Shown: positions 6,060 through 57,778 of the stretch, piece by piece
Layout of the letters: each line of letters begins with the position of its first letter
Position numbering within the stretch: the first letter of the stretch is position 1
From: an uncultured Candidatus Peribacteria bacterium
GTDB taxonomy: Bacteria > Patescibacteriota > Gracilibacteria > CAIRYL01
Assembly (NCBI GenBank): GCA_964532505.1
Contig: CAZHIF010000006.1
Location: forward strand, 13,558-77,557
Length of the DNA stretch: 64,000 nucleotides
Direction: 5' to 3'
Notes under the pieces: model-generated
Databases searched by the model: none
The model's input: the letters and a program-made list of their open reading frames with translations, nothing else
Told to the model about the DNA's origin: nothing
Translations under genes and position numbers: made by a program

Positions 6060-6173
6060 GAAATCTCTGTGAAATATATAGTTAAAGAGAGAGGGTGGGG
6101 AGGGTAAAATAATGAAGGTAATCTCAAAAAGGAAACGATAATAGATGCAACTTCTCTCTTTTTATAAAAAAAA

Positions 6174-7086: not shown

Positions 7087-10000
7087 ATGAGCGATAAACT
7101 CTTTTCTCGAAAACCCATCACCCGCCAATCAAGCCACTTTGAACCACCTCAATCAAATCTCCCTCATCATTCTTCAAAAACACCTCTTTCAGAAAAAACA
7201 AAAAAAACAGCTAAAGCGCTTTTTTTGAAGTTTTTTCAGCTTGGGCTTTTTATCGTCCTTTGTGGATTTTTGTGGATTGGATACACCATTTCCACAACCC
7301 CAGATATCGAAACCCTCAGTGCTAATTCGTTTTCCCAGCCAAGTGTCATTCTGGACAATTCTGGAGGAACAGTGTTGTATGAATTGGTTGGGAAAGAAAG
7401 ACGAGACGTGGTGGCGCTCAATGATATTTCTATTCACATGCAGCATGCTATTTTGGCAGCAGAAGATGCCGATTTTTACAACCACGGAGGAGTATCATAC
7501 CGTGGAATTGCCAGAGCCGTGCGAGATGCATTCATTGCAGGACGCACCGAAGGAGGAGCTTCCACCATCACTCAACAACTGGTGAAAATGGTAGTGTTTT
7601 CAAAGGGAGAAGAAAGTTTTCATGAAAAATTACAACGAAAAATTAGAGAAATATCTCTTGCCATCGAAGTGGAAAAAACCTATGACAAAAACCAAATTCT
7701 TGAACTCTATCTCAACAAAGTTCCATTTAGAGGAAATATATATGGAGTAGAACGAGCCTCTCAGGAATTTTTTGGGAAAAATGCAAAAGATTTGACTATT
7801 GCAGAAAGTGCTTTTTTGGCAGGGCTTCCACAAGCTCCAGGGCGATATCAACGGGTAAATAAATCGTATATTGATCTCACGCCAGAAGAAATCGAAAGCC
7901 TGAACATTACTGATTTCGATGATCTCATGAGCCGATCGAATGAGATTAAAGACTCATTTGTACGAGGAGTATTTGGACAAAATTGGAACTTCGCGGGTGG
8001 AAAAATTGGCTATATACCTGGTCGGTTTGACTATGTATTAGGACAAATGCTCGCGAAAGAATTTATTAGCGAATCGGAAGCTAAACAGGCAAAAGAGGAG
8101 GTGAAAAATTTAAAATTTGTAGAGAATAAAGTTAGCCTTATAGCTCCGCATTTTGTTTTCTATGTGCAAAGCCAACTAGAGGATATTTTGAAAGAAAAAT
8201 ATGGAGATCAAGCAGAAACGATTCTCTATCAAAAAGGACTTAAAATATATACCACTCTTGATTCTGATTTGCAAAAAACCATGCAAGAAACATTTTTAAA
8301 TGCTTCTGCGAATCTTGATCCCTATAATATTCAAAATATTGCAGGAGTTGTTTTAGATAGTAAAACAGGGGCTATTTTGGCGATGCAGGGATCTCGAGAT
8401 TTCAATGCTACCGAATTTGGAGGACATCCTTTTGATGGGCAGGTGAATGTGATGACTTCTTCCAGACAGCCAGGATCAACTTTTAAAGCATTGGTGTATG
8501 CTGCTGCCTTTGAGCAAAAAGGACTCGCCCCAGCAACAGTTCTCATGGATGTAAAAACAAATCTTTCCCTCAATGGAGTCCCCTATTTCCCAAAAAACTT
8601 TGATAATACTTTTTCAGGTCCTGTGAGCATACGAAAAGCGTTGGGGTCATCCCTCAATATTCCTGCAGTGAAAGCTGGGATTATTATAGGTATCAAACCA
8701 CTGTATGAATTTGCTGGAAAACTCGGAATCCAATTTACAGAAAATGTTAATACGATGGGTCCAGCGATGGCATTGGGGGCGCCAGTGGTAAAACCTCTTG
8801 AAATGGCTGGAGCATATGCCACACTCGCAAATCAAGGGAAAAAAGTGACGCCTTTTGCCATCACCAAAGTGGTGGATGCTTCAGGTGCGATGATCTATGA
8901 ACAAAATATGAAAGCAGAACAGCCTCAGGTTATTTCACCAGAGACAGCATTTTTGGTGAGTGATATTCTTTCCGATGAATCGGGGAAGGCTCGACCAACC
9001 TCTTGGAACGGCTCGCTGGGAGGCTTTGGAAGACCTGTTGCGGTGAAAACGGGAACTTCCACAGGAGTGGATGCGAAAGGGAATACGCATCCTCATGACC
9101 TTTGGACTATTGGATACACTCCTTCGCGAGTGTTGGCAGTGTGGGCGGGAAACAACAAAGGATGGGAGGGAAATCCAAAAGGATTTTTATCAGATAAAGC
9201 CTCTGGACTTACCAATGTGGCACCCATTTGGAGAAAGATTATGCTCGCAGTGATCAAAGGAGTCCCTGCAGAAAATTTTGTGCGTCCTGCAGGAGTAAAG
9301 CAAATATCGGTTTCAAAACTTTCTGGAAAACTTCTTCCACAAGGATTTCCAGAATCACTTATCGTGAATGATTATTTCAATGTAAAATATTTACCAGACA
9401 AGCAGGATACCTCTTTGAAATATGTGAAACTCGAAGAATCTTCACAAAAACTTCCCAATGAATTTACTCCAGAAAGCGCGGTAAAAGAATATGTGTATGT
9501 GGAATTTCACTCGTTCTTTCCCAATAACCCTGCATGGGAAAACCCTGTAAGAGATTGGCTTACATCAAACAGAGCCACATTGAGTGAAAATCTTGGAATC
9601 CCCAACATTATTCCATTTGTTCCAAAAGAAACTACCGAAGTATATTCGGAAGAAACACAAAAAAACGCTCCCAAAATTACCATTGTCTCTCCTCCAAACA
9701 TGGGAACGGTTTCACCTCCTCGTATTACAATCACCACCAATCCGTCTTCTCCCAATGGAGTAGCAGCTGTACGAATCTATTGGGATGGGAAAATAGTGGC
9801 GCAAAAACAAGAGGCTCCATGGACATTCATTATTCCTGTCGAAGGCACAATGGTTGGTTCGGTGCACACCATCAAAGCAGAGGTTGAAGATAACCTAAAG
9901 TATACAGGAGAAATTTCAAAACAAGTGAAAATTGGAGCAGACACAGTTCCTCCAAAAATTTCGTTCAACTCTCCTGAGGAAAACACTTCCATAGCATCAG

Positions 10001-10233
10001 GAAATCGCCTCCCTATTTCGATAGACGCGATCGACGCCAATTCTTCCATAAAACGAGTAACCATCAGCATAGATGGAGAAGTTGTGAAAACATTTACTAC
10101 CTCGCCATATCAAATGAATTGGAAGGCAGATCTTCCGGCAGGGACTCACGTTTTGGAGGCAATCGCCCATGACGAAGCTGAAAATGAAAAACGAGTAAGT
10201 CTGAATTTCAAGATTACCGAAGTAGCCCAATAA
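7087..10233 (+). CDS. class A penicillin-binding protein (GT51 transglycosylase + transpeptidase) with C-terminal tandem Ig-like domains
   Basis: GT51 motifs EDADFYNHGG and GASTITQQLVK. Transpeptidase motifs STFK (SxxK), SLN and KTGT. N-terminal TM anchor. Two Ig-like repeats at about 9670..10227. Confidence 0.9.
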   Translation: MSDKLFSRKPITRQSSHFEPPQSNLPHHSSKTPLSEKTKKTAKALFLKFFQLGLFIVLCGFLWIGYTISTTPDIETLSANSFSQPSVILDNSGGTVLYELVGKERRDVVALNDISIHMQHAILAAEDADFYNHGGVSYRGIARAVRDAFIAGRTEGGASTITQQLVKMVVFSKGEESFHEKLQRKIREISLAIEVEKTYDKNQILELYLNKVPFRGNIYGVERASQEFFGKNAKDLTIAESAFLAGLPQAPGRYQRVNKSYIDLTPEEIESLNITDFDDLMSRSNEIKDSFVRGVFGQNWNFAGGKIGYIPGRFDYVLGQMLAKEFISESEAKQAKEEVKNLKFVENKVSLIAPHFVFYVQSQLEDILKEKYGDQAETILYQKGLKIYTTLDSDLQKTMQETFLNASANLDPYNIQNIAGVVLDSKTGAILAMQGSRDFNATEFGGHPFDGQVNVMTSSRQPGSTFKALVYAAAFEQKGLAPATVLMDVKTNLSLNGVPYFPKNFDNTFSGPVSIRKALGSSLNIPAVKAGIIIGIKPLYEFAGKLGIQFTENVNTMGPAMALGAPVVKPLEMAGAYATLANQGKKVTPFAITKVVDASGAMIYEQNMKAEQPQVISPETAFLVSDILSDESGKARPTSWNGSLGGFGRPVAVKTGTSTGVDAKGNTHPHDLWTIGYTPSRVLAVWAGNNKGWEGNPKGFLSDKASGLTNVAPIWRKIMLAVIKGVPAENFVRPAGVKQISVSKLSGKLLPQGFPESLIVNDYFNVKYLPDKQDTSLKYVKLEESSQKLPNEFTPESAVKEYVYVEFHSFFPNNPAWENPVRDWLTSNRATLSENLGIPNIIPFVPKETTEVYSEETQKNAPKITIVSPPNMGTVSPPRITITTNPSSPNGVAAVRIYWDGKIVAQKQEAPWTFIIPVEGTMVGSVHTIKAEVEDNLKYTGEISKQVKIGADTVPPKISFNSPEENTSIASGNRLPISIDAIDANSSIKRVTISIDGEVVKTFTTSPYQMNWKADLPAGTHVLEAIAHDEAENEKRVSLNFKITEVAQ

Positions 10234-10577
10234 AAATAAGCAATGAAATTTTTTTAAAAGAAAATTCATGGGCTCTTTATTCTTTTATCAAAAACTCATT
10301 TTACCTCTCCATACTCTCAACAGCACTCGTAGCCCCTCCTTATTTTTTCAGATACTCCCTCTTCGAAAATCACGAAACAAAAGACATATGTAAAACACCA
10401 CTGCAAGGTCATCACATACTAGCTAAAAGACGAACACATTGTTTACACTTCCTCACGCCACATCATAGAGCCAAAATCTAAACATTGGAATAACTCTTTC
10501 TAAAAAAAATTGGATTCTTTAAAAATTCAATAAAAAAGAAAAAAATAACACAAGAAAGTTTTTTTATTTTCGCATAT

Positions 10578-10622
10578 AAAAAAAGAAGGGGCTTTGTCAT
10601 AAAAAACATGACAACCCCCTTC
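10578..10622 (-). terminator. rho-independent terminator after fusA
   Basis: On the minus strand: GAAGGGGG.TTGTCAT / loop / ATGACAA..CCCCTTC followed by TTTTTTT. Confidence 0.75.
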
Positions 10623-10654
10623 TTATCTGCAGTATCTATTCGATATTAGATAGA

Positions 10655-12748
10655 TTACGCCATTCCTCGTTTCTTTCGAATGTCTTCTGTCACATTTGAA
10701 GGAGCTGGATCGTAGTGAGAAAATTCCATCGAATACGAAGCTCTTCCTTGAGAAAGCGATCGAAGATTGTTTACATATCCAAACATTTCAGAAAGAGGAA
10801 TTTTTGCACGAATCACTTTTGCCGTTCCTCGGTTTGCTGTTTCTTCAATCATTCCTCGTCGAGATGACACATCTCCCATCACATCTCCCAAATAGTCTTC
10901 TGGCGTGGTGATTTCTACTTTCATAATCGGTTCCAAAAGCACAGGTTTTGCTTTTCTTGCTGCATCTTGAAAGGCAATGGATCCTGCTGTTTTGAAGGCA
11001 AATTCTGAAGAATCCACATCATGGTATGACCCATCATAAAGCTCTACTTCGATGTCTACCATAGGATATCCGGCAACGACTCCTTTTTTCATCGCCTCTT
11101 GAACTCCCTTGTCTACCGCTGGAATGTATTCATTAGGAATCTTTCCTCCCACTACAGCGTTTACAAACTTGTATCCCTTCGCCTTTTCTTCTTCTGTTGC
11201 CTTTTCAGAAATCGGCCGAACTCGCATAAGAACATGTCCATATTGCCCTCGTCCTCCTGTCTGCTTTGAGTATTTTTCTTCCACGTTCACTTCCAAATTA
11301 ATTGTTTCTCGGTATGCCACCTGAGGTGCTCCCACTGTGGCTTCCACTCCAAATTCTCGCTTCATTCGGTCTACAATAATTTCAAGATGAAGTTCTCCCA
11401 TTCCAGAAATGATAGTTTGCCCTGTTTCTTCATCTGTTCGAACTCGAAGAGTAGGATCTTCTTCTACTAATTTTGAAAGAGCTGTTCCCATTTTTTCTAA
11501 ATCATTTTTCGTTTTTGCTTCAATAGCAATGTGAATTACTGGTTCTGGGAATACAATTGCTTCCATCGCAACAGGATCTGAATTTTCATCGCAAATAGTG
11601 TCTCCTGTTCGCACATCTTTAAGCCCCACAATCGCTCCAATTCCTCCAGATCGAATTACTTTAATTTCTTCTCGAGAATTGGCGTGCATTTGCACAAGTC
11701 GTCCAATTCGTTCTTTTTTCCCCGTTCGAGTGTTTATTACATAACTTCCTGATTCGATTTGTCCTGAATATACTCGAAAAAAACAAAGCCGTCCGATAAA
11801 TGGATCGGTTGCAATTTTAAAGACTACTCCTCGAAGTTCTTTTCCATTTGGAGAAACAATCACTTCTTCTTCTGTTTTGATACTAGTTGCTTTAATTTCA
11901 GGAACATCTAATGGAGATGGAAGGTAGTCTTGTACTCCGTCTAGCAATAATTGAACTCCTAGATTTCGAAGAGAAGAACCACAGTACACAAGGTATAGCT
12001 TGTTTTGGCAAACTCCTTTTCGAAGAGCTGCTTTTAGTTCTGCCAGTTCTACTGTTTGTCCTTCTAGCACTTTTTCCATGATTGCTTCATCAAAATCAGC
12101 AGCTTTTTCAATAAGAGCTTCACGAGCAGTAGCTACTGCATCTTTCATGTTTTCTGGAATAGCAATTTCTTTAATAATTTCCCCAGATTTCCCTTCAAAA
12201 GTAAATGCTTTTTCATTTACAATATCAACAATTCCAGAAAATTCACTTTCTTCTCCAATTGGAAGCTGCACTGGAAATGCATCTTTTGTAAGTCTTGTAT
12301 GAATAGATTTGATACACATTTGAAAATCAGCACCTGTTTTATCCATTTTATTTACAAATGCAATTCGAGGAACTCGATATTTATCAGCTTGTCTCCAAAC
12401 AGTTTCTGATTGTGGCTCTACTCCTTGAGAACCATCAAATACGGCAACACCTCCGTCCAACACTCGAAGAGATCGTTCTACTTCTACGGTAAAATCAACG
12501 TGTCCTGGAGTATCAATAATGTTAATTTGAACATTTTTCCACCGGCAGAAAGTAGCGGCAGATGTAATGGTAATTCCTCGTTCTTGCTCTTGTTCCATCC
12601 AGTCCATCGTTGCAGCTCCGTCATGTACTTCTCCAATTTTGTGAGTTACCCCTGTATAAAAAAGGATACGCTCTGTAGTGGTAGTTTTCCCCGCATCAAT
12701 GTGGGCAATGATTCCGATGTTTCGGATAAGCGAAAGGTCTTGTGCCAT
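10655..12748 (-). CDS. fusA: elongation factor G (stand-alone, not in an rpsL-rpsG-fusA-tuf cluster)
   Basis: G1 [16 protein letters not shown]3 DTPGHVDF, G4 NKMD; 697 aa, five-domain length. Confidence 0.9.
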
Positions 12749-13529: not shown

Positions 13530-16500
13530 ATGAAACCATACACACATACATTTGAAGGATTTTTGGAGAAAAGGATGGTGTTTAATAATGGCGAAGGATT
13601 TAATGAAATATTTGATTATCAAAAAGAAACGCCTAGCAATATTGCACGACAAACAACAGAACAGCTTCAGCAAAGCCAAGACAAAATGCTTACACAACCA
13701 AGCCAAGTCCCTGTGGAAATAGCATATAAAGCCACTGGGAATGAAATTCCTGAAAATAATTATCCACAAAAAACAATTGAAAAAATAGCAGGATATAATC
13801 TTGCTTCTTATCATATGCCAAAAGATATGGCTGTTACCGATAATTTTCCAGAAGCACTAACCGATGATTTTCCAGAAGCACTAAGGGTGTTAAATTTGGT
13901 GGCAAGCTATGTACCTCCTGAAGAGCGACATAAAATAGTTAATGGAAATGAATATTTACCCGAGATTGCACAGGCTGTTTTAATGAATATACATAAAGAT
14001 CCAAAGAGTTCAGCTTTTAATGCTATTAATGATCATATTTCTCTTGCTGCTGCAGAAAAAGCAAGATCTTTGTATGTAGCAGATAAAAATGAAAATGGGC
14101 AAATTGATAGTTCTTACTACACCGTACCAAGAGCAACCATTGGTCCTTTTTCTTTTGGAAAAAAGCATATACCAGTTTCCAATGCAGGGGATTCATCTGT
14201 TGCACAAGGAAATATAGTACAAGAAGGAAATATGTTTACAGATACTGGCGTTAAGCAATCAATCTTTGGAGGAGTCCCAGAAAATGAGAACCATCAAATT
14301 AGCCAAGAGCTATACTACGCAGGACGCGCTGCTTTGGAAGCAGAATTAAATGATGATAATAATAGCTCAAATGGTTCAAACAATTGGGGTGAAGAAATTG
14401 GATTTACACCATACAATAAAGCAAGAAATACTCTTAATAGAAATAATTTTTCAGAAATTGCTCGAATGGGATATAAAGTACTTGGAGAAAAAGAAGGAAA
14501 CCTTCGAGCAATGGGAGCTGCTGTCAATAATTTGGTTAAGGGAAATGAAAACACTTCAGGAATTTCTATTCCAGAAGGAATCCAAAAACTCAACCCATCA
14601 GAAAAAGAAGCATTTTTATCAGCCTTACAAAATGGATGTTTTACAAACCAAAGATTTAACCAAATGGCAGAAGCGGGAGGAATTGGTATCATCATTGAAA
14701 ATGCTTCTATGAAGGATATAGATGTTCCTCAAGATGAAGTTGAAAGAAGTATTGAAAAAATAGTGAGTACAGGAGACTGGAAAATGATTGAAGAGAAAAT
14801 TACAGTAGATAACAGCTCTACATTGGTTAAAACAGAAAATAATGGAAAAGTAATTACCTATACCTATGAAGATAAAACTATAACGATAAAAGAAACAACA
14901 GAAGGTCGAGTGATTACCACTACCACGAATGAAAGAGTTACTACTACTACATACAAAAAAAACAGCCCTCCTCAAAAAGTTCATTTTGTTCTCCCTGCAT
15001 CTTTAGATCTTGGAGGCGGGAATAGTCTTTCTGCTGCGAATATTTTAAATCCAAAAGATTTTGGAATTGCTCTTCGGCATACGTTTGAAGGAGGGTCTTC
15101 TGTATGGGCAGATACCAAAGGAAATGTGGGAGGAACCTTACGAACAGAATTTGAAGGAGGATCTGCCTATTTTGGAGCAGACATGGGCTTGGTTGATCAA
15201 TTTACACAAGGGGGGGTGAATATTGTGGCAGGTACTGAACTGGAGAGCCAAGAATGGAAAACAAAATTTGAAGCAGGAATGAAAAATGGAGATATAGCAT
15301 CTTTGAAAATGGGACTTGAAAGAAACCTTGGCAATCCAAATTCTTTGATCAATAGAAATCTAAAAGAAAAATATAACGAACTGTATCATAACGATAATGC
15401 AGTAATACAATATTGGCAATCAAGAGGAACACCCGCTCATAATCCTCCAACAACTGGAGAACGACAAAGCGCAGCTTATGATTTGGCAACAAAGGCAATG
15501 TCAAAAGGATTATTTAAGCTTTATGGAGCAGAAGCTTCCCTTACCCCAAGTTCTCTTGGAGTAATGCTAAAATTTGTGTATGGAGTAGAGCGACAACAGC
15601 GTATTATGGGAATAGATCCAAAAATTCTTTCATCTCTCGAAAATAAATATCTCCAAATGGCAGCAAATGGGCAATTGGACAATAGAGAACTTCTGAATAA
15701 GAAACTTTCTATAGAAGATTTTTGTGAAAACGGAATGTGTAGAATCCTTCCTAAAAATATCCTTACAGATTTTCAAAATAAGGGGTATCAAAAAGTTCGA
15801 ATTTTTGGAAAAGGGGGTATTCCAAGTTCACTTGAATCCATTCCTCAAGAACAATTTGGTGAAAAGCCACCATTATTGGTAGTGAGAAATGGAAATGATG
15901 GAGTCCCTGTGATAGATGTGTCAGATGAGTTTGGTATGGGACAAGATGTTGCTTTTGGATACGAATATAATCCCACAACAAATCAAGCACAAATAATTCC
16001 AAATGTAAATGAATTTTATGCAGCCAATTGCACCGTACCATCACAAAACAATAGTGCATCATTATTAGGAGAAAATACTGTAGAAACAGGAAGAGGAGTG
16101 CATACAATAGCACCTCAAGAGATAAATGAAGCAGTGCTTTCTGAAATGGACGCTGTGAGAGATTCTATGGTTCAAAAAATGAAAACAAATCCAGGCCTCA
16201 AAAAAATGATAATGGATTTTGAGGGAACATCTCTCAATGCTTTTTCTAATAGTACAAGCGATGAATTTAAACAATCTGTAGAAAGAATAAGAAAAACATT
16301 TAATATTTCCACTTCTCTTTCTGATAATGCACTGGCCACTGTAGCATTTAAAGCTCGAATGAAAGCAAGTGGAAAAGAAGATTTTGAATCACGTATAAAT
16401 TATGCCCAAAGTAGTGGATTTATTACACAAGCTGAAAAAATGACAGGTGAAGCAAATATTTTACAACTCCTACAATCTGGAACAGAAAGCTTTAGATTAA

Positions 16501-17474
16501 GAGGTGGATCAGGAGGAATAGCAAATCGGTTTGATAGAAATGATACAAGCATAGATCACGCATACGAAGCAGGAGGAATTCAGCTTGTAAAAGCATCTCG
16601 GAAAGAAACAGAAATGACCGATCCAAGAACTGGGAAAACAGAAAAATGTTATCTCGTCACTGGATTTATAGAAGAATGTAATAACGCATTTGTTGGATTT
16701 GAACCATTTTCTCAAGAAGAATATGTGAATACAAAAAAAGAATATACAGGAGCAATTATCGAAGGATATGATGCTACGTATTATGATTATGTTCACCAGT
16801 TTAAAACTTTTTCTTTGAATATTTTAGGACTTCAAGGGGTTCCAACTATTTCAAAAGAAGTTTCTACTATTGTTAATCCTACAATAGATACTCAAAATGA
16901 AATAAGAAATAACAGTGAAACATATTCCCACACATTAATTAGAACAAGAACCGAGACGCCTACACCTCCGCCACCTCCACCTGAAACTCCTCCACCAACT
17001 CTACCTGAAACTCCTCCTCCACCTCCACCGCCTGGGCCTCGTAAGGGAGAGCCACCAAAACCAATAGCACCAGGTCAGCCAGGAGGGCCTTTACAACCAG
17101 GTCAGCCAGGAGGACCTACTATCCCAGTGGAACCACCCGCCCCAGGAATTCCTGGATCACCAAATCCAATTCCACCGGGCTCAAATCCGCTTCCTCCCAA
17201 TTATACTCCAGAACAGCCGCCTCCACCCCCTACACCAGCACCACCAACTGCTCCAGTAGCCCCTGTTCAACCTCCTGCAGTGCCCCCATCTGTTCCTGTT
17301 CCTATTACAGTGACACCAGAAGGACCAGTGGTTACACCACCTGTTATTGCTCCACCAGCTCCACCAGCTGCCCCAGCCCCCATCGGAAATGTAACAGTGA
17401 CACCAGTGGTTCAAGCGCCACCACCCGTAATGCAACCTCCAACAGGTTTTGCAGCAGTGTTTCCAGGGCAATAA
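13530..17474 (+). CDS. hypothetical 1314-aa protein with C-terminal proline-rich region
   Basis: Single uninterrupted ORF with no signal peptide, TM or known motif recognised. Last 174 aa (16950..17471) are Pro-rich (PPPPPPETPPP, PGQPGGP x2). Confidence 0.6.
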   Translation: MKPYTHTFEGFLEKRMVFNNGEGFNEIFDYQKETPSNIARQTTEQLQQSQDKMLTQPSQVPVEIAYKATGNEIPENNYPQKTIEKIAGYNLASYHMPKDMAVTDNFPEALTDDFPEALRVLNLVASYVPPEERHKIVNGNEYLPEIAQAVLMNIHKDPKSSAFNAINDHISLAAAEKARSLYVADKNENGQIDSSYYTVPRATIGPFSFGKKHIPVSNAGDSSVAQGNIVQEGNMFTDTGVKQSIFGGVPENENHQISQELYYAGRAALEAELNDDNNSSNGSNNWGEEIGFTPYNKARNTLNRNNFSEIARMGYKVLGEKEGNLRAMGAAVNNLVKGNENTSGISIPEGIQKLNPSEKEAFLSALQNGCFTNQRFNQMAEAGGIGIIIENASMKDIDVPQDEVERSIEKIVSTGDWKMIEEKITVDNSSTLVKTENNGKVITYTYEDKTITIKETTEGRVITTTTNERVTTTTYKKNSPPQKVHFVLPASLDLGGGNSLSAANILNPKDFGIALRHTFEGGSSVWADTKGNVGGTLRTEFEGGSAYFGADMGLVDQFTQGGVNIVAGTELESQEWKTKFEAGMKNGDIASLKMGLERNLGNPNSLINRNLKEKYNELYHNDNAVIQYWQSRGTPAHNPPTTGERQSAAYDLATKAMSKGLFKLYGAEASLTPSSLGVMLKFVYGVERQQRIMGIDPKILSSLENKYLQMAANGQLDNRELLNKKLSIEDFCENGMCRILPKNILTDFQNKGYQKVRIFGKGGIPSSLESIPQEQFGEKPPLLVVRNGNDGVPVIDVSDEFGMGQDVAFGYEYNPTTNQAQIIPNVNEFYAANCTVPSQNNSASLLGENTVETGRGVHTIAPQEINEAVLSEMDAVRDSMVQKMKTNPGLKKMIMDFEGTSLNAFSNSTSDEFKQSVERIRKTFNISTSLSDNALATVAFKARMKASGKEDFESRINYAQSSGFITQAEKMTGEANILQLLQSGTESFRLRGGSGGIANRFDRNDTSIDHAYEAGGIQLVKASRKETEMTDPRTGKTEKCYLVTGFIEECNNAFVGFEPFSQEEYVNTKKEYTGAIIEGYDATYYDYVHQFKTFSLNILGLQGVPTISKEVSTIVNPTIDTQNEIRNNSETYSHTLIRTRTETPTPPPPPPETPPPTLPETPPPPPPPGPRKGEPPKPIAPGQPGGPLQPGQPGGPTIPVEPPAPGIPGSPNPIPPGSNPLPPNYTPEQPPPPPTPAPPTAPVAPVQPPAVPPSVPVPITVTPEGPVVTPPVIAPPAPPAAPAPIGNVTVTPVVQAPPPVMQPPTGFAAVFPGQ
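13837..13884 (+). repeat. 24-nt tandem duplication (2 copies, 1 mismatch) inside the 1314-aa ORF
   Basis: ccgataattttccagaagcactaa / ccgatgattttccagaagcactaa, encoding DNFPEALT-DDFPEALR. Confidence 0.9.
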
Positions 17475-21987: not shown

Positions 21988-22233
21988 ATGAAGAGGAAAT
22001 CTGCTATCCGACGGCTCAAGATCATTTCGGGGCAGATCGAAGGACTGGTGCGCATGTTAGAGTCGGAAGAGCGATGCGAAGCAGTTTTTCCGCAGATAAA
22101 AGCTATCAAAAATGCCTTTCATTCATTTTCCTCTGAAGTGACAAAAGAAATGATGAAAGAATGTGTTCCGCAGCTTTCGGATGATCAGGTGGAAAAAATG
22201 GAAACGATTATGAATCATTTTACAAAATTATGA
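21988..22233 (+). CDS. CsoR/RcnR/FrmR-family (DUF156) metal- or thiol-sensing repressor
   Basis: RRLKIISGQIEGLVRMLESEERCEAVFPQIKAIKNAF....KEC; 81 aa. Cys30 and Cys59 are present, but the position of the CsoR histidine is Met55. Confidence 0.75.
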   Translation: MKRKSAIRRLKIISGQIEGLVRMLESEERCEAVFPQIKAIKNAFHSFSSEVTKEMMKECVPQLSDDQVEKMETIMNHFTKL

Positions 22234-23879
22234 TTCGATTAGTACCCTATTGGCAAGCACTGGGAATATTTATTCTAGGAGGACTTTGTCTTCCTTTTCT
22301 TTTTCCTATCCCGCTGGGGAAAATCATACTCACTTCCCCCACTCTTTCCACTGAGCAGATTGCAAATCAGGTAAATAACACTCCTACACAGCAAGATAAG
22401 ATCTGGCAAATCAGTTTCGACAGTGCTCTATTACACGAAAAACACATGAGCATAGCAGAAGTATTGGCACGCATTATGCCAATTCTTTCGCTTAATGAAA
22501 GCACGGGAGAACTTTCTTCCGATCGATTTATTCTTCCTATCATCAAAAAAGCCTATGCATCACTCGAACAGCTTGCTTTTTTCCCATTAAACGACACCAC
22601 TCTTTTGAGAGATGTGGCACGTATAGCGCCATTTTCAGAAACAGAATTTCCTGCGCAGTGGTATGATGCCTCGGTGGCACAGTGGTATCCTGCGGTTGTT
22701 GTGCCACAAACCACATATCTTTCCGTGCTTCCGTTTAGCACTTGGCAAAGCGAATATCAGATGCAAAAAAAATTACAAGGAACTGATATTCAAATTCATT
22801 GGCACGATAAAAACACCACTTGGCTTTTGTGGTGGCAGATTATAGCATTATTGGTTTCAGGATTTTTGGGAATTGGCGAATATATGGCAAGAAGAAATCC
22901 CGACACAACAGTGAAATCAGAAGGATTTTCGGTAAGAGGGGTGTACATTGCACCTGCCAAAATTCCCAAAAAAATCCCTTCGTGGAAAGACCAAATCATC
23001 TCACGTATTTCACAAATCCACACCGCGCCAAAATATATCGTGAGAAGTGTAATTATTATGCTAAGTCTTGCTCTTTTTTTGCTCGATTTCCCCCGTTTTG
23101 AATATCAAAATACGTTCTATCTGCAAAATGAAAACCAGACAAAAGACGAAAAAACATTTACCGATGCAAAAGCACTCCTGATCCAATGGACAGAAAAGGG
23201 AGGAAGCTTTTCTAGTGCAATTTTTGAACCATTGCCAAAGAGTCGCGCAAAAATATTGATAGAAATACCTGAGAAAGGCATAGCTATAACACCTGAGAAT
23301 CTGCGTCCTCAAACCTTTGGAACAAAAATATTTTTTCCGTCTTTGGGGGATGCCATGACCATCACCAACAATGAGAATGAAGCAGAACAAGTCATTAAAA
23401 CCCTTTCAACGCAGTGGGGAGTGGAAAAGGTGAACTGGACATCTTCTGTACAGCAAACTACAGAACTCATTCCAAACTATTCCGCGCTTAAAGAAAATGG
23501 TATCAGCGCATTAGAAATTACGACCTTTCTCGATTTTATTGGCACTGGAAAGCATATTGGAGAAGTATTCCTTACGGCAGAAAAAAATGAAATGGGAACA
23601 GATCTCTCGGGATGGTTTTTGAAAAACACCAAAGGAGAACTGGTTTCGGCAAATAATGTGATCCTCAAAACCATGTCGAGCAACCCAAAAACTCCTCAAA
23701 CGATATATTTTTCTTTCAGCAATATTTTTGCGATTCTACCACTCTTTATATCATCACTTGATTTTCAACTCGTTTATCTAAAAAATCTTATCATACTGTT
23801 GATTATTGTGTTGGTGGAAATGGGAATTTTAATGTTTATTATTGCAAAAGTAGTCTATTCCAGAGTTTCTAGAAAGTAA
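22230..23879 (+). CDS. hypothetical polytopic membrane protein (2 large soluble loops), start overlaps csoR-like stop (ATGA)
   Basis: TM segments at the N-terminus, around residues 205 and 275, and at the C-terminus. Only weak by-eye resemblance to RND porter subdomains (e.g. TLLRDVARIAP). No firm family. Confidence 0.5.
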   Translation: MIRLVPYWQALGIFILGGLCLPFLFPIPLGKIILTSPTLSTEQIANQVNNTPTQQDKIWQISFDSALLHEKHMSIAEVLARIMPILSLNESTGELSSDRFILPIIKKAYASLEQLAFFPLNDTTLLRDVARIAPFSETEFPAQWYDASVAQWYPAVVVPQTTYLSVLPFSTWQSEYQMQKKLQGTDIQIHWHDKNTTWLLWWQIIALLVSGFLGIGEYMARRNPDTTVKSEGFSVRGVYIAPAKIPKKIPSWKDQIISRISQIHTAPKYIVRSVIIMLSLALFLLDFPRFEYQNTFYLQNENQTKDEKTFTDAKALLIQWTEKGGSFSSAIFEPLPKSRAKILIEIPEKGIAITPENLRPQTFGTKIFFPSLGDAMTITNNENEAEQVIKTLSTQWGVEKVNWTSSVQQTTELIPNYSALKENGISALEITTFLDFIGTGKHIGEVFLTAEKNEMGTDLSGWFLKNTKGELVSANNVILKTMSSNPKTPQTIYFSFSNIFAILPLFISSLDFQLVYLKNLIILLIIVLVEMGILMFIIAKVVYSRVSRK

Positions 23880-29420: not shown

Positions 29421-30689
29421 TTAAAAAATATTCATAGCATTTTTAAGCTCCTCTTCTTTTCCTTCAAACGGACCAATAATACTCAGGCGTAATTTTTTTG
29501 GATCCAAAATTCGTTTTGCCACCAAATCTACTTGTTCTTTGGTAACAGCGTCAATCGATTCAAAATATTCATCTAATGTTTTAATAGGGCGATGTAATAC
29601 CGCTTGTGTTCCTAAAAATCCTGCAATTTCTTCACAGTCTTCCATTCGGAGGGTGATTTTTCCTTTTAAATAATTTTTTGCTTTAATGAGCTCTGTTTCC
29701 AGAATACCATTTTGTGCTATTTCATGATATTCTTTTGCAATGGCTTCAACAGCTTCGAGCACTCGAGGAATGGCAACCCCAGCTCTAGTGGAAAACACTC
29801 CGCAGTCGGTATATCGATCGGTTGAGGTTCCAATACTATAGCATAACCCTTTTTCTTCTCGCACTCGCAAAAACATTCGCGACGACATTCCTCCGCCCAA
29901 AATAACCGATAAAATACTTTCGGCATATTTATCAGCATCAAAATGATCAAGGCCAGGAAACCCCATCACTAGATGTGCTTGCTCTGTGTTTTTATTTCGC
30001 AAAAAAAGCGTTTCGGTTTCACTCCAATTAAAAGGCGTTGGAGTCCTTTTTTTAGAAGTATTAGAAAAAATAAAATACTGATCAATCAATTTCATAATTT
30101 CATCTTGTTGCACATCTCCTGTTGCAATAATCACAGTATTTTCTGGGGTGTACAGTTCATTTTTATACTTTTGAAAATCTTCTTGGGTAATAGAATTGAT
30201 AAGTTCAGGTGTTCCGATCTGATCAAGTGCCATGGGGTGATTTCCAAAAAGTAACTCCTCAAAATCCCATCCAACTTTATAAGTCGGCATATCTTCATAC
30301 ATGTTCATTTCTTCCAAAATCACGCCTCGTTCTTTATCGATTTCTGTAGGATCAAACGTTGCATTCAGCAGCATGTCCGAAAGCACATCGAAAGCAATTT
30401 TCTTCTGCTCTGCGGCTACTTTTACATAATACCCCACATATTCTTTCCCAGTGAATGCATTGAAATCACCTCCTACTCCATCAATGGCTTCAGACACCTC
30501 TTTGGCGTTTTTATACCGTGCTCCTCCTTTAAAAAACATATGCTCTAAAAAATGAGCGGTTCCTCGTTCATGTTCAGCTTCATATCGACTTCCTGCTCCT
30601 ACTAAAATAAGTAAAGTACATGCTTTCGTTCCTTCTTGTGGCGAAATAAGCACTCGAAGTCCATTTGATAATTTCTGTTCGGTGTACAT
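29421..30689 (-). CDS. M16-family (insulinase/pitrilysin-like) zinc peptidase
   Basis: Inverted zinc motif HFLEH (TAHFLEHMFFKGG). ATG 30689 (MYTEQKLSNGLRV) chosen because the longer ORF would run across the leuS start. Confidence 0.8.
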   Translation of the reverse strand: MYTEQKLSNGLRVLISPQEGTKACTLLILVGAGSRYEAEHERGTAHFLEHMFFKGGARYKNAKEVSEAIDGVGGDFNAFTGKEYVGYYVKVAAEQKKIAFDVLSDMLLNATFDPTEIDKERGVILEEMNMYEDMPTYKVGWDFEELLFGNHPMALDQIGTPELINSITQEDFQKYKNELYTPENTVIIATGDVQQDEIMKLIDQYFIFSNTSKKRTPTPFNWSETETLFLRNKNTEQAHLVMGFPGLDHFDADKYAESILSVILGGGMSSRMFLRVREEKGLCYSIGTSTDRYTDCGVFSTRAGVAIPRVLEAVEAIAKEYHEIAQNGILETELIKAKNYLKGKITLRMEDCEEIAGFLGTQAVLHRPIKTLDEYFESIDAVTKEQVDLVAKRILDPKKLRLSIIGPFEGKEEELKNAMNIF

Positions 30690-30815: not shown

Positions 30816-33800
30816 ATGTCTGCGTATAATCACCAAGAAATTGAAAAAAAATGGCAACAATTTTGGGAAGAAAATAAAACATTTTCTGTGAAAAACGCTT
30901 CAACTTCGCTCAGCGACCAATCTGAACCTGAGCAGAGTCGAAGGAAAAAATTCTATGCCCTTGATATGTTCCCTTATCCATCTGGTGCGGGGCTGCATGT
31001 TGGGCATCCTGAAGGGTATACCGCCACGGATATTATTTGCCGAAAAAAACGAATGGAAGGATATGATGTTTTGCATCCCATGGGGTGGGATGCTTTTGGG
31101 CTTCCTGCGGAAAATTTTGCCATCAAAACAGGTGTACATCCCAATGTTTCAACGCAACAAAATATTGCCAATTTCACAAAGCAAATTAAATCTCTTGGGT
31201 TTTCGTATGACTGGAACCGAGAAATTGATACAACCGATCCCAATTATTATAAATGGACGCAACAACTGTTTTTGAAATTTTATGAAAAAGGATTGTTGTA
31301 TGAAGAAGAAAAACCAATGAACTGGTGTCCGAGTTGCAAAGTGGTGTGTGCAAATGAGGAAGTAGAACAAGGACTGCATGAACGGTGCGGAAATCCCGTG
31401 ACGAAAAAATCACTCAAACAGTGGATGTTTAAAATTACCGACTATGCCGAACGGCTTTTGCAGGATTTGGAAAAACCAAATGTGATTATTCTCCACGGAT
31501 GGGGAGGAAGAGGTTCTTCAGGGTGGATGGCAGACTTAAAAAATTTTTTGGAAAACAACGGAATAGAAGCGTTTTCTCCAGATTTACCAAATACGAAAAA
31601 TCCACAATATGCTGAATGGAAAGAATTTTTTGAACAAAATCTTAAACAACATCTTCGCAGAAATACCATTTTGGTTGGGCATTCTTTGGGTGGAGGATTT
31701 ATTCAAAAATATCTATCAGAAGAAGAAATTCAAATTGCAGAAATTGTTTTATTTGCCCCAACTGTTTCTAATTGTGGTATTTCTGAAATTGAAAATTTTT
31801 TCACCGAAACATTTGATTACGAAAAAATTAAAAATTCTACAGATAATATTTTTATTTTTGGAGGAGGAAAAGATCCGTATATCAAAAAAGAAGAATTGGA
31901 ATTTTTGACCGAAAAACTTTCTGCTCATTTGGAAATCTTCCCAGAAGAAGAGCATTTTTGGAGCGATAGGCCTATTGATTATTTTTCTTCAAAAGCAATT
32001 TCGAAATTTTTTGAAAAAGTTGTCGATTCTCAACTCGACTGGCCAGAAAAAATTAAGGCAATGCAAAAGAACTGGATTGGGAAAAGTGAAGGAGGAGAAA
32101 TTGAATTTACAATTCAAAATTCAGAATTAAAAATTTCCGTCTACACCACCCGTGCAGATACCATTTTTTCAGGAACATTTTTGATTTTGTCGCCAGAACA
32201 TCCATTGGTTGCCAAAATTACAACGCCTGAACAAAAAACGGAAATTGAAGCCTATCAAAAAAAATGTGCGGCAATGTCGGATCTTGACCGAACGGAGCTC
32301 AACAAAGACAAAACAGGTGCATTTACAGGAAGTTTTGCGATCAATCCAGCGAGTGGCGACAAAATGCCGATTTGGATTTCGGATTTTGTTTTGGCAAGTT
32401 ATGGAACAGGAGCGGTTTTTGCCGATGCTCATGACGAACGAGATTTTGAAATGGCAAAAATTTATGGGATTCCTCTCAAAACTTCTATTTATCCAGAAAA
32501 TGCAACTCCTGAAGAAAAACAAAAAATCGACAACCTAGAAGAATGTTTTTCTGGAAAAGGAATCTTACATCATTCTTTACAATTTGATGGAATGAAATCG
32601 GACGAAGCGATTCCAAAAATTTTGGACTGGCTGACAGAAAAAGGATATGCGACAAAAAAAACCAATTATCGTTTGCGTGACTGGATTTTTACTCGGCAGC
32701 GATATTGGGGAGAACCGATTCCATTGGTATTTGATGAAAATGGAAAATGCTATCCATTGGACGAAAGCGAACTGCCTTTGGTGTTGCCTGAAAGCAGCAA
32801 TTATGAGCCGAGTGAAAGTGGAGAAAGTCCACTTGCAAAAATTGAAGAATGGGTAAATGTGAAAGGAGAAATTACCGAAAAGGGAACCGTGAAAATTTCG
32901 GCAAATGGGACAAAAAAATTCAGAAGAGAAACTTCCACCATGCCAAACTGGGCAGGAAGTTCGTGGTATTGGCTTCGGTTCATGGATGCCAAAAATGACG
33001 AACAAGCGTGGTCAAAAGACGCTGAAAATTTTTGGGGACCAGTGGATTTGTATGTCGGAGGTGCCGAACATGCAGTACTACACTTGCTCTATGCTCGATT
33101 TTGGCATAAAGCATTATATGATATGGGACTCGTTTCCACCAAAGAACCGTTTAAAAAATTAGTAAACCAAGGACTCATTTTGAGCTATGCATACCAAAGA
33201 AGCACGGGTGGACTGGTTCCACTAGACGAAGTGGAAGAAAAAACCATAGACGGAATTCCAAAATATTTTGAAAAATCGACCAGACAAGAAGTGAAAAAAA
33301 TCGTCGCCAAAATGTCAAAATCGCTCAAAAATGTGATTAATCCTGATGAAATTATTGAAGCCTTTGGAGCAGATACTTTGCGAATGTACGAAATGTTTAT
33401 GGGACCGTTTGAGCAGAGTAAAGCGTGGGACACTACTGCCGTGGAAGGAATGCATAAATTTTTGTCTCGAATTTATAGAAATTTTACGGAAAAAGAAATT
33501 GTAGATGTTTGCCCGCCCGAAAATCTTATTCGGCTAACGCACCAAACCGTCAAAAAAGTTTCTGATGATATTGATGCGTTCAAGTTCAATACTGCTATTT
33601 CGCAACTGATGATTTGGATGAATGAATTTGCAAAACTTGATCACATTCCACGCATTGCAGGGGGTCGTTTTATTCGCCTTCTTTCTCCTTTTGCTCCGCA
33701 TTTGGCAGAAGAATTGTGGAAAAAATTTAAACCCGAAAGCGAAACGATTGCGTTTGAAAATTGGGCAACATACGACGAAAAATATTTGGTGGCTGATACA

Positions 33801-33986
33801 GTTGTGTACGCCGTGCAGGTGAATGGAAAACTGCGGGCTGATTTTGAAATGCCAAAAGATGCTCCACGCGAAGAAGTTTTGGAGGCGGCAAAAAAATTGG
33901 AAAAAGTACAGAAATATTTGAATGAAGGAGTAATGAGAAAAGAAATTTTTGTTCCGGGAAAAATTGTAGGGTTTGTAGTAGGGTAG
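30816..33986 (+). CDS. leuS: leucyl-tRNA synthetase carrying an inserted alpha/beta-hydrolase domain
   Basis: HVGH (HIGH), KMSKS, CP1 motifs TTRADTIF and GTGAVFADAHDERD, C-terminal VQVNGKLR. 1056 aa against about 860 aa for canonical bacterial LeuRS. Confidence 0.9.
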   Translation: MSAYNHQEIEKKWQQFWEENKTFSVKNASTSLSDQSEPEQSRRKKFYALDMFPYPSGAGLHVGHPEGYTATDIICRKKRMEGYDVLHPMGWDAFGLPAENFAIKTGVHPNVSTQQNIANFTKQIKSLGFSYDWNREIDTTDPNYYKWTQQLFLKFYEKGLLYEEEKPMNWCPSCKVVCANEEVEQGLHERCGNPVTKKSLKQWMFKITDYAERLLQDLEKPNVIILHGWGGRGSSGWMADLKNFLENNGIEAFSPDLPNTKNPQYAEWKEFFEQNLKQHLRRNTILVGHSLGGGFIQKYLSEEEIQIAEIVLFAPTVSNCGISEIENFFTETFDYEKIKNSTDNIFIFGGGKDPYIKKEELEFLTEKLSAHLEIFPEEEHFWSDRPIDYFSSKAISKFFEKVVDSQLDWPEKIKAMQKNWIGKSEGGEIEFTIQNSELKISVYTTRADTIFSGTFLILSPEHPLVAKITTPEQKTEIEAYQKKCAAMSDLDRTELNKDKTGAFTGSFAINPASGDKMPIWISDFVLASYGTGAVFADAHDERDFEMAKIYGIPLKTSIYPENATPEEKQKIDNLEECFSGKGILHHSLQFDGMKSDEAIPKILDWLTEKGYATKKTNYRLRDWIFTRQRYWGEPIPLVFDENGKCYPLDESELPLVLPESSNYEPSESGESPLAKIEEWVNVKGEITEKGTVKISANGTKKFRRETSTMPNWAGSSWYWLRFMDAKNDEQAWSKDAENFWGPVDLYVGGAEHAVLHLLYARFWHKALYDMGLVSTKEPFKKLVNQGLILSYAYQRSTGGLVPLDEVEEKTIDGIPKYFEKSTRQEVKKIVAKMSKSLKNVINPDEIIEAFGADTLRMYEMFMGPFEQSKAWDTTAVEGMHKFLSRIYRNFTEKEIVDVCPPENLIRLTHQTVKKVSDDIDAFKFNTAISQLMIWMNEFAKLDHIPRIAGGRFIRLLSPFAPHLAEELWKKFKPESETIAFENWATYDEKYLVADTVVYAVQVNGKLRADFEMPKDAPREEVLEAAKKLEKVQKYLNEGVMRKEIFVPGKIVGFVVG
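31473..32036 (+). other. about 188-aa alpha/beta serine-hydrolase (YdeN/RBBP9-like) domain inserted within LeuRS (residues about 220-407)
   Basis: VIILHGWGG, nucleophile elbow GHSLGG (Ser codon 31683..31685), GGGKDPY (Asp 31872..31874), EEEHFW (His 31953..31955). Flanks DLEK / LDWPEKIKAMQKNWIGKSEG are contiguous in canonical LeuRS. Confidence 0.7.
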
Positions 33987-34140: not shown

Positions 34141-34755
34141 ATGCCTAAAGCCTTTTCTCCTCAAGATCACTATTTTCACCAAGCAAAAAAGCTTGGATAT
34201 CGAGCTCGCAGTGCGTTTAAACTCATCGAAACACTGGAAAAATTCCCAAAGCTTTTGCCAAAGAAGGCAAATGTGCTGGATCTGGGAGCTGCTCCTGGAA
34301 GTTTTTTGCAGGTGTTGGGAGAAAAAAACGCAGGAGGAAAAGTGTGTGGAGTGGATTTGCAGAAAATAGAAAAGTTTCCAAAGAATTATCCGTGTGAGCT
34401 GGAACTCATCCAAGGAGATGTTTTTGAAGAAAGCACTGCGAAAGAAATCATTGCATTTTTTGGAGAAAAGAAAGCCGATCTCATCACATCAGATCTGGCG
34501 CCCAAAACTTCTGGGATCAAAGGAGTGGATCAGTGGAAGAGTATCGAGCTTAATCAGCGAGTGCTGGAAGTGTGTGAAATGCTTTTAAAACCGAAAGGAA
34601 ACCTTATTACCAAGATTTTTAAAGGAGAAGATTTTGAAGAATTTTGGACGCATGAATTTCGCAATCGATTTGAAACGGTAAAAACTTTCAAACCAAATTC
34701 TTGCCGAGATAGGAGTGTAGAGTTTTTTTTGGTAGGAATAGAGTGGAAAGGATGA
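34141..34755 (+). CDS. rlmE: 23S rRNA (uridine-2'-O)-methyltransferase RlmE/FtsJ
   Basis: YRARSAFKLIE, SAM motif VLDLGAAPGSFLQV, ITSDLAPKTSG. Confidence 0.85.
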   Translation: MPKAFSPQDHYFHQAKKLGYRARSAFKLIETLEKFPKLLPKKANVLDLGAAPGSFLQVLGEKNAGGKVCGVDLQKIEKFPKNYPCELELIQGDVFEESTAKEIIAFFGEKKADLITSDLAPKTSGIKGVDQWKSIELNQRVLEVCEMLLKPKGNLITKIFKGEDFEEFWTHEFRNRFETVKTFKPNSCRDRSVEFFLVGIEWKG

Positions 34756-57528: not shown

Positions 57529-57603
57529 TGGTAGTGCCAAGGGGAATCGAACCCCTGTTGCCGGACTGAGAACCCAGCGTCCTAACCGCTAGACGATGGC
57601 ACC
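57529..57603 (-). tRNA. tRNA-Glu (anticodon CTC), CCA encoded
   Basis: Reverse complement GGTGCCATCGTCTAGCGGTTAGGACGCTGGGTTCTCAGTCCGGCAACAGGGGTTCGATTCCCCTTGGCACTACCA; anticodon loop TTCTCAG; G1-U72 wobble pair. Confidence 0.85.
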
Positions 57604-57724
57604 GTACCTTCAAAATATGCCTATAGCATTTTTGCAAAAAGCATTCTTACGCTTTCCTCAAAAAAAGGCAAGAGAAAAAAGTTGTCAGCGAAATTTGGAA
57701 AATACCCGATTTTTTCAAAAAAAA

Positions 57725-57753
57725 TTGCAAAAAACAAAGAAATCTGATATAAT
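57725..57753 (+). promoter_or_regulatory. strong sigma70-like promoter TTGCAA-N17-(TGa)TATAAT for the mosaic surface-protein gene
   Basis: -35 at 57725..57730, TG at 57745..57746, -10 at 57748..57753. The first ATG downstream of the predicted transcription start is 57779. Confidence 0.55.
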
Positions 57754-57778
57754 GATGAGAAATTTTTACAAAAAAAAT

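Follow-up and report, generated by a model that had tools for sequence, protein, structure and literature searches.

An RBBP9/YdeN-type serine hydrolase module within leucyl-tRNA synthetase of a Peribacteria bacterium and at several sites in synthetases of the Candidate Phyla Radiation

Introduction

Why would a leucyl-tRNA synthetase (LeuRS) carry a second, unrelated enzyme inside its own chain? The question is raised by the leuS gene in a stretch of 64,000 nucleotides from an uncultured Candidatus Peribacteria bacterium (GenBank assembly GCA_964532505.1, contig CAZHIF010000006.1, positions 13,558 to 77,557 of the forward strand). We refer to this whole stretch as the window and give positions in its own numbering. 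Aminoacyl-tRNA synthetases are among the best-studied enzymes, and the accessory domains that serve them in editing, tRNA binding or signalling are a major theme of the field. The window gene contains, to judge from its sequence and predicted structure, a complete serine hydrolase of the RBBP9/YdeN type, with its catalytic site intact and in frame inside a complete LeuRS. An initial annotation, made from the nucleotide sequence without database searches, had recognized this arrangement and offered two hypotheses for it, an additional proofreading activity or a moonlighting esterase.

Results

An RBBP9/YdeN-type hydrolase in the leuS reading frame

The inserted module alone scores 46.2 bits against Pfam family PF06821 (Ser_hydrolase; cutoff 22), covering profile positions 1-157 of 172, and 41.5 bits when read within the full protein; it also matches Abhydrolase_1 with 47 bits. 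These alpha/beta-hydrolase families are its sole Pfam matches, and none was found to the known synthetase editing and trans-editing families (CP1, YbaK/INS, AlaX, DTD and B3_4). The best sequence matches in the PDB are human RBBP9 (3e-12) and Bacillus subtilis YdeN (8e-11). An AlphaFold model of the insert, built with 46 sequences, has a predicted local distance difference test score (pLDDT) of 94.4 and a predicted template modelling score (pTM) of 0.92. In a Foldseek search with this model the top matches were all alpha/beta hydrolases, with YdeN (1uxo; template modelling score, TM, 0.85) and RBBP9 with Phe (7oex, TM 0.83) standing well above the others. The modelled structure is a minimal, lid-less alpha/beta-hydrolase fold of ~180-190 residues. 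Family and fold are thus as the initial annotation had assigned them, and the codons that it had named for the Ser-Asp-His triad are exact (Table 1).

The module resembles human RBBP9 and B. subtilis YdeN in profile score and predicted fold, in the order of the catalytic elements (HG...GHSxG...D...H), in its length of ~185 amino acids and in having no lid. The aminopeptidase RBBP9 depends on a free alpha-amine in its substrate, whose side chain is caged by Tyr99, Leu103, Phe140 and Leu141 while Glu108 binds the amine (PMC8866121). The D-P-aromatic-aliphatic element of this cage is retained in the module, as is a conserved Glu in the loop equivalent to that of Glu108. In contrast, the module has Thr, Cys and Leu where RBBP9 has Tyr99, Leu103 and Ser76, and its equivalent of the Glu108 loop is shorter by two residues, so that the substrate may differ. 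Sequence identity to RBBP9 and YdeN is 22-25%, and the module differs from both in being embedded in another enzyme.

Across 83 aligned modules, 69 of them embedded, the nucleophilic Ser and the His are invariant (100% each), the acid is Asp or Glu in ~94% and the HG motif is kept in ~94-98%, while overall identity between modules is just ~25-30%. Near-invariant catalytic residues amid such low identity are a signature of selection on catalysis.

The host enzyme and the insertion point

The surrounding protein matches the bacterial LeuRS family of NCBIfam (TIGR00396, leuS_bact) with 1011.9 bits (cutoff 548.4), the match falling into two stretches on either side of the insert, and Pfam recognizes the class I catalytic core, LeuRS's editing domain and the domain for anticodon binding. 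Translation of the open reading frame (ORF) of 1056 amino acids gave no internal stop and no frameshift, and the HVGH, KMSKS and CP1 motifs listed in the initial annotation are all in place. In the full-length AlphaFold model (pLDDT 85.6, pTM 0.80) body and module are both folded; by target-normalised scores of this predicted model, the LeuRS body reaches a TM of 0.87-0.88 against Escherichia coli LeuRS-tRNA complexes (4AQ7, 4ARC) and 0.85 against Thermus thermophilus LeuRS (1H3N, 2BYT). Like these canonical enzymes, it has the HIGH motif, ZN domain, CP1 motifs, KMSKS loop, anticodon-binding domain and C-terminal domain, and is predicted to be a fully functional LeuRS that keeps both its synthetic and its CP1 editing site. 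It is unlike them in having a foreign enzyme domain of 186 amino acids at the equivalents of T. thermophilus G209/L210 and an editing motif one residue shorter (GTGAVFA-DAHDERD), a variant common to its closest relatives.

In an alignment with T. thermophilus LeuRS, the insert falls precisely at the junction of G209 and L210 (...AERLLKDLEG / LNWPEKVKAMQ...). The block delimited in the initial annotation as 31473-32036 is therefore real, but includes one flanking residue too many on each side. Its site had also been taken for the linker into CP1; instead it is a helix-helix junction after the ZN domain, 11-15 residues ahead of CP1. According to the full-length model, the module sits at the tip of a helical hairpin on linkers of ~4-6 residues per side (helix 207-217 to strand 222-227; helix 389-404 to helix 411-421). 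The Trp of the stretch at which the LeuRS core resumes is the counterpart of E. coli W223, the docking residue for the ZN domain. The net charge of the module is -12.

Codon usage, which the initial annotation had described as matching the flanks, does not match them. GC content at third codon positions (GC3) is 0.20 in the insert against 0.34 in the remainder of leuS, below the lowest equal-sized window of that remainder (0.277), and overall GC is 0.32 against 0.40, the insert being rich in Phe, Ile, Asn and Glu. The GC3 of the insert nevertheless falls inside the range of other genes of the window. Such a dip in composition would fit an artefact or a selfish element, whether assembly chimera, intein or inserted transposon, to which we assign a negligible chance in view of the independent assemblies and the junction residues. 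An identical module position with the same in-frame junctions occurs in at least 10 independent assemblies or proteins (our labels L001-L004, L101, P0008, P0009, P0013, P0093 and P0007), and the insert is therefore no chimera. Of the outcomes that the initial annotation had named as refuting its reading, none came about: an alpha/beta-hydrolase fold is predicted, the catalytic residues are conserved and independent assemblies extend across the two junctions. Among them are a Gracilibacteria metagenome-assembled genome whose LeuRS is 65% identical to that of the window (L001), a Peribacteria and a Patescibacteria locus, the latter on a contig of 828 kb (L002 and L003), and a JGI metagenome contig (L101); a metagenome scan with a single protein query found one relative, and look-ups of the exact window LeuRS sequence gave no match. 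An intein, which the initial annotation had already discounted, is rejected on the junction residues (Lys220-Pro221 at the start, Gln406-Leu407 at the end), which include neither an N-terminal Cys, Ser or Thr nor a C-terminal His-Asn followed by a nucleophile; moreover, Pfam found no Hint or LAGLIDADG endonuclease domain in the window LeuRS. A transposon or insertion sequence is rejected likewise: the junctions have no target-site duplication and no terminal inverted repeats, their repeats being just short AT-rich chance ones of which none is paired across the junctions, and the insert has no transposase domain.

Table 1. Features of the window leuS gene and its hydrolase module, and sites of the module in LeuRS of other genomes. 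Sites A to E are numbered on the insert-free Sphaerochaeta LeuRS (L013).
Feature	Position	Strand	Basis or remark
leuS, bacterial-type LeuRS, 1056 aa, hydrolase module inside	30816..33986	+	ORF, stop TAG; TIGR00396 match
LeuRS catalytic (Rossmann) core, N-terminal part	30816..31475	+	Holds HVGH, ZN domain and helix KITDYAERLLQDLEK, which ends at the insertion point
HVGH motif, aa 61-64	30996-31007	+	Motif position
Zinc-knuckle ZN domain, C171-x2-C174...H188-x2-C191	within 30816..31475	+	ZN definition per PMC13454842
RBBP9/YdeN-type alpha/beta serine hydrolase module, aa 221-406, 186 aa	31476..32033	+	PF06821, fold, boundary alignment
HG oxyanion-hole motif, His227-Gly228, after strand beta1	31494..31499	+	H in 81/83, G in 78/83 modules
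Ser290 (TCT), nucleophile in G-H-S-L-G-G (G288-H-S290-L-G)	31683..31685	+	83/83 modules; aligns with RBBP9 Ser75
Asp353 (GAT), catalytic acid	31872..31874	+	Aligns with RBBP9 D138
Asp353 followed by Pro-Tyr-Ile	31872..31883	+	Tyr/Ile align with Phe140/Leu141 of the RBBP9 substrate cage
His380 (CAT), catalytic base	31953..31955	+	83/83 modules; aligns with RBBP9 H165-equivalent
LeuRS core resumes: LDWPEKIKAMQ, helix start (continues KNWIG) towards CP1	32034..32066	+	Alignment and model
CP1 editing domain, aa 418-606	32067..32633	+	PF13603, 192 bits
T-rich motif TTRADT, from aa 444, intact	32145-32162	+	CP1 motif
CP1 motif GTGAVFADAHDERD, from aa 530, intact	32403-32444	+	GTG...HDxRD motif
KMSKS loop, aa 832-836	33309..33323	+	Motif position
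Anticodon-binding domain, aa 904-1020	33525..33875	+	PF08264, 68 bits
Site A	~210/211 (L013)		The window's type
Site B	~238-246 (L013)		Hairpin turn immediately ahead of TTRPDT
Site C	~360-375 (L013)		Loop following HDxRD, within CP1
Site D	~436-442 (L013)		CxxC knuckle right after CP1 exit
Site E	~674-689 (L013)		Ahead of anticodon-binding domain; far from acceptor end

At least five insertion sites in LeuRS of the Candidate Phyla Radiation

To count carriers, 1.84 billion cluster representatives were searched exhaustively with HMMER, the query being the insert with 50-residue LeuRS flanks; the counts are lower bounds, taken from the best 150 matches. Among the matches listed, at least ~65 LeuRS-length cluster representatives from the Candidate Phyla Radiation (CPR) carry the module, and several others are complete free-standing proteins of 172-199 amino acids, 35-46% identical to the insert. 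Named carriers belong to Gracilibacteria, Peregrinibacteria, Uhrbacteria, Taylorbacteria, Portnoybacteria and Doudnabacteria, and are publicly annotated just as 'leucine--tRNA ligase' or 'hypothetical protein' (e.g. MCT4592538.1, MBT4936803.1 and UniRef A0A1G2MFH8). None of 75 non-CPR LeuRS loci contained the module. Each locus examined had exactly one copy, and there is no second copy in the 64-kb window.

The module occupies at least five surface sites in LeuRS, A to E, all of them loops or hairpin turns (Table 1), and tandem copies are found in P0113 and P0104. The window enzyme and nearly all of 51 full-length carriers have intact HVGH, KMSKS, T-rich and HDxRD motifs, on which ground we reject the module as a substitute for a dead CP1 domain. 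Embedded modules have a net charge of -3.8 and 164 free modules one of -2.8, which is no difference (p=0.66), and an adaptation of the embedded form to tRNA contact is rejected accordingly.

Several carriers show peculiarities of their own. In P0007, a LeuRS of 1140 amino acids, a nested insert of ~140 amino acids with no Pfam match splits the site-A module (aa 207-530) behind its nucleophile region. The leuS gene of L001 has an in-frame TAA at ~3517-3519 where the window has GAA (Glu), in the context ANE*VEQG, with the remaining frame intact; an error in sequencing, a pseudogene or recoding could each account for it. That of L004 (3001-6063), whose site-A module has an AHSCG nucleophile elbow, includes an in-frame TGA that can be read through only with code 25, and the genome, labelled 'uncultured Gammaproteobacteria', is probably a mis-binned one of the Gracilibacteria/Absconditabacteria type. 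A bacterial-type LeuRS with a site-C module was deposited as 'Candidatus Nanohaloarchaeota archaeon' (P0027, RLG13644.1), which reflects either mis-binning or transfer into a DPANN archaeon.

Other small enzymes in the same loops

A further 45 insertions of 60-340 amino acids occupy the same LeuRS hotspots. NUDIX domains were found in at least 12 LeuRS, mostly at site C and also at site A (P0025, P0113, P0082, P0106, P0065, P0022, P0038, P0047, P0020, P0042, P0026 and P0129). Pfam further identified, all at site B, GNAT acetyltransferases (P0054 and P0028), Ham1/ITPase-like domains (P0094, P0063 and P0097) and an IS200-type Y1 transposase domain (Y1_Tnp; P0035, aa 269-374). These other passengers often co-occur with the hydrolase in single LeuRS of 1100-1344 amino acids. 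Isoleucyl-tRNA synthetase (IleRS) is also a host: a Paceibacterota locus (L093) encodes at 8024-12109 an IleRS of 1361 amino acids (TIGR00392, 865 bits) that has an HD domain and, at ~aa 527-690, a His_Phos_1 insert; it is encoded downstream of a free RBBP9/YdeN hydrolase, 1.5 kb away, and genes for NUDIX, dUTPase and ArgRS lie upstream. NCBIfam moreover holds a named family of IleRS with an N-acetyltransferase domain (NF040702, ileS_w_GNAT), a precedent for a class Ia synthetase with an unrelated small enzyme domain, although host (IleRS) and passenger (GNAT) differ from ours. Taken together, the NUDIX, GNAT, Ham1 and Y1_Tnp domains in LeuRS and the IleRS cases indicate that class Ia synthetases of the CPR are general hosts for small enzymes.

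If loops of LeuRS are this permissive, with many unrelated inserts of which one is transposase-like, the hydrolase could be a neutral or structural insertion as well: tolerated baggage, or a non-catalytic scaffold or regulatory surface, kept because precise excision from an essential gene is unlikely. The lower GC3 of the insert and the faster evolution of the module relative to the LeuRS body (39-45% against 61-69% identity among site-A relatives) would agree with this. We nevertheless regard it as very improbable, given that 69 embedded modules of such low mutual identity share an invariant Ser and His and a nearly invariant HG, GxSxG and Asp, that the fold is predicted with very high confidence and that modules have been duplicated in tandem.

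Free-standing homologues and the origin of the insertion

Free CPR homologues of ~180 amino acids are abundant, with 2275 matches at E<=1e-10. Searches of the annotated protein database returned such free proteins only and missed even the source proteins of the query modules. Among the free homologues nearest to the window module in sequence, three that are 38-40% identical to it (P0195, P0176 and P0177) lie 0.9-1 kb upstream of insert-free leuS, and a fourth (P0012; 46% identical to the window module and 55% to that of L002) lies 0.5 kb downstream of another insert-free leuS. The LeuRS beside the first three are 64-67% identical to the window LeuRS body, compared with 69% between the window and L002 and 61% between the window and L003 among the carriers themselves, and they share the GTGxVFA-DAHDxRD variant of the window enzyme.

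In a bootstrapped neighbour-joining tree of LeuRS from 782 insert-free columns, (L003,((L084,(L089,L081))100,(L002,(L001,window)96)97)97)99, the clade with the hydrolase as a neighbouring gene nests inside the site-A carriers with 97-99% bootstrap support. This nesting implies either repeated entry of the module at the same site or its clean exit from leuS. The neighbour-joining tree of modules joins that of L002 with the free proteins P0012 and P0033 and with the module at site E of P0010 (100% bootstrap) and not with window and L001, unlike the L002 LeuRS body, which is sister to these two; cassette replacement or repeated insertion is suggested. Four ancient, vertically inherited insertions are not supported, as site classes and non-carriers interleave in the LeuRS tree and the L002 module is misplaced. 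The most plausible source of the insertion would be a hydrolase gene that neighboured leuS in the clade's ancestor and was moved into it by a local rearrangement; in CPR LeuRS the module may since have undergone many gains, losses, relocations or swaps.

The loci L081, L084, L097 and L102 share one ancestral block (unk433...GT2-RecR), in which L102 has the hydrolase but no leuS, and free homologues that are more distantly related lie away from leuS. We have accordingly downgraded the proposal of two independent leuS linkages of the free gene, all linked loci sharing that block. Nowhere in the 64-kb window is there a counterpart of the GT2-RecR-HisRS block by which leuS is flanked in the insert-free sister clade.

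The insert-free leuS of L097 (2989-5493) has a degenerate T-rich motif (VYNSVPQTYH vs VYTTRPDTLF) with HDKRD kept, and a free hydrolase (6001-6537) follows 0.5 kb downstream on the same strand; this single case is suggestive only. In L091 a free hydrolase, P0160, is ~300 bp from a stand-alone B3_4 gene of 226 amino acids, similar to PheRS-beta editing domains (5008-5688 and 6001-6543), with a small opposite-strand ORF between the two.

Discussion

What the embedded hydrolase may do

We favour, with a probability of about one half, the reading that the module is an autonomous hydrolase of a diffusible aminoacyl-type substrate, which LeuRS would carry for obligatory co-expression and co-localisation. 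Its reaction is most likely that of the free-standing CPR homologues of similar size. The substrate would be a small diffusible alpha-aminoacyl compound with a free alpha-amine, a hydrophobic side chain and an ester, thioester or N-terminal amide linkage, and fusion would provide a 1:1 ratio to LeuRS without a fixed geometry to the tRNA 3' end. With five or more different sites for it in LeuRS, the module cannot require a precise position relative to the CCA end.

The chemistry of characterized alpha/beta hydrolases would agree with such substrates. A homologue of YdeN is a short-chain esterase, and soluble esters or thioesters have been suggested for YdeN (PMC6119806). Human BPHL (valacyclovirase), like the module an alpha/beta-fold serine hydrolase with a Ser-Asp-His triad and present among its Foldseek matches (2ocg), favours amino-acid esters of nucleoside analogues over ordinary esterase substrates (PMC4198189). 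The parallel is one of analogy, as BPHL is larger, has a cap domain and belongs to another alpha/beta-hydrolase family (Foldseek TM 0.63/0.48). A specific link of the module to LeuRS chemistry is possible, for which aminoacyl esters and homocysteine thiolactone are candidate substrates. LeuRS and IleRS are among the class Ia synthetases that take part in the homocysteine editing from which homocysteine thiolactone arises. The thiolactone is described as a product of synthetase editing, with MetRS named, and BPHL, which prefers amino-acid esters, hydrolyses it at 7.7e4 M-1 s-1 (PMC4198189).

Such a link would exist in a hydrolase dedicated to LeuRS, serving quality control or detoxification with mischarged aminoacyl-tRNA(Leu), non-cognate aminoacyl-adenylate, homocysteine thiolactone or an antibiotic that mimics the aminoacyl-adenylate as its substrate. 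We hold this only tentatively, below the autonomous passenger. One form of it would be a third sieve, a proofreading activity in cis that deacylates mischarged aminoacyl-tRNA(Leu) or hydrolyses non-cognate aminoacyl-adenylate between the synthetic and the CP1 sites. RBBP9-type chemistry, with its free alpha-amine and aminoacyl-Ser intermediate, would by analogy formally be that of aminoacyl-tRNA deacylation, and the module keeps the D-P-(Y/F)-(I/V) cage element and the conserved Glu of the Glu108-equivalent loop. Of the five site classes, four are located at the CP1 hinge or within it, beside the mobile ZN domain; carriers are many and their nucleophile is invariant; in the clade of the window, leuS and the free gene are linked; and the degenerate editing motif of L097, in one case, and the B3_4 gene adjoining one free homologue would also fit. 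Known synthetase editing modules (CP1, INS/YbaK/ProXp, AlaX, DTD and PheRS B3/B4) likewise occur both fused to synthetases and as separate proteins. In fold and catalytic mechanism, they are unrelated to the Ser-Asp-His alpha/beta hydrolase considered here, for which aminoacyl-tRNA is a hypothetical substrate.

The initial annotation had argued that the position of the module puts the hydrolase site on the route of the aminoacylated 3' end, an argument that is weakened by these data. CP1 motifs are intact in the window and nearly all carriers, leaving no evident gap in editing, while the module varies in position, up to site E far from the acceptor end, and occurs in tandem. In the window it is attached by short, rigid linkers at a hairpin tip and is strongly acidic, embedded modules in general show no basic shift relative to free ones, and unrelated enzymes sit in the same loops. 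Together these observations argue against geometry-dependent proofreading, which we consider unlikely; of the two functions first proposed, the sequence evidence favours a moonlighting esterase over additional proofreading.

A second form of LeuRS-dedicated function would be immunity attached to its target, the module, like the GNAT and NUDIX passengers, detoxifying non-hydrolysable aminoacyl-adenylate mimics beside LeuRS through cleavage or modification. This draws on the GNAT enzyme MccE2, which acetylates the alpha-amine of synthetase inhibitors, on the serine peptidase MccF, which cuts their aminoacyl-nucleotide bond, and on TM84, a Leu-AMP mimic that targets LeuRS (PMC8323819). GNAT and serine-hydrolase domains do both occur in CPR LeuRS, at times in one protein (P0028 and P0054), the IleRS-with-GNAT family NF040702 would fit, and fixed geometry would be unnecessary. 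The case is, however, one of pure analogy, with MccF belonging to a different fold family (S66); it does not accommodate the Ham1 and Y1-transposase passengers, free homologues abound and most of them lie away from any synthetase or antibiotic cluster, and no inhibitors are known from these habitats. We therefore rate it as improbable.

Several points also weigh against the autonomous passenger and the history that we propose for it. The tRNA CCA end travels ~30 A around the CP1 hinge and the ZN domain (PMC13454842), the very region where sites A to D cluster, so that some proximity effect is possible. The LeuRS flanks in the census query mean that no inference can be drawn on LeuRS as the preferred host. 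Both trees are neighbour-joining trees of divergent sequences and thus indicative, the module tree having 170 columns and few supported nodes. Finally, the shared block, the hydrolase without leuS in L102 and the distance of other free homologues from leuS mean that the neighbourhood of leuS and hydrolase may be inherited synteny and not selected linkage.

Other features of the window

Upstream of leuS and divergent from it lies a gene for an M16 (insulinase-type) peptidase (29421-30680, minus strand), and downstream one for an FtsJ/RlmE-type methyltransferase (34141-34755, plus strand). Farther away, an ORF of 1451 amino acids (57596-61951) combines GH18 glycosyl hydrolase, LCCL, thrombospondin type 1 and DUF4214 domains, a eukaryote-like mix of adhesion domains that is unusual in a bacterium with a small genome; the start of this ORF is overlapped by a tRNA-Glu(CTC) of the opposite strand. 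Two further ORFs, 13530-17474 (1314 amino acids) and 22230-23879 (549 amino acids), have no Pfam match at E<=1e-5, and the first has a very low GC3 of 0.197, similar to that of the hydrolase insert.

Significance

The literature searched, in agreement with the initial annotation, describes no synthetase with an alpha/beta-hydrolase insertion, nor one with a NUDIX or Ham1 insertion, and no link between RBBP9/YdeN and tRNA synthetases; in a 2026 survey of domain insertions, CP1 is the sole synthetase insert discussed. Both component families are known and the sequences have been public for years under generic names, whereas their combination and its dynamics appear to be new. The fusion is widespread and no curiosity, extending over Gracilibacteria/Peregrinibacteria, Parcubacteria-type lineages and Doudnabacteria.

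If the module is an autonomous passenger, an essential synthetase would serve to carry small housekeeping enzymes in ultra-small genomes. If instead it were dedicated to LeuRS, this enzyme would be a multi-enzyme hub, together with its NUDIX, GNAT and Ham1 passengers, and the module would represent a new, alpha/beta-hydrolase class of synthetase-associated hydrolysis; action on LeuRS-derived aminoacyl species would amount to a new translational quality control or to target-attached antibiotic immunity. The hydrolase gene is a neighbour of leuS in some genomes of the window's clade and part of it in others, which makes this clade a tractable natural system for how domain insertions arise. More generally, the association with LeuRS provides a first functional lead for the large and uncharacterised bacterial YdeN family.

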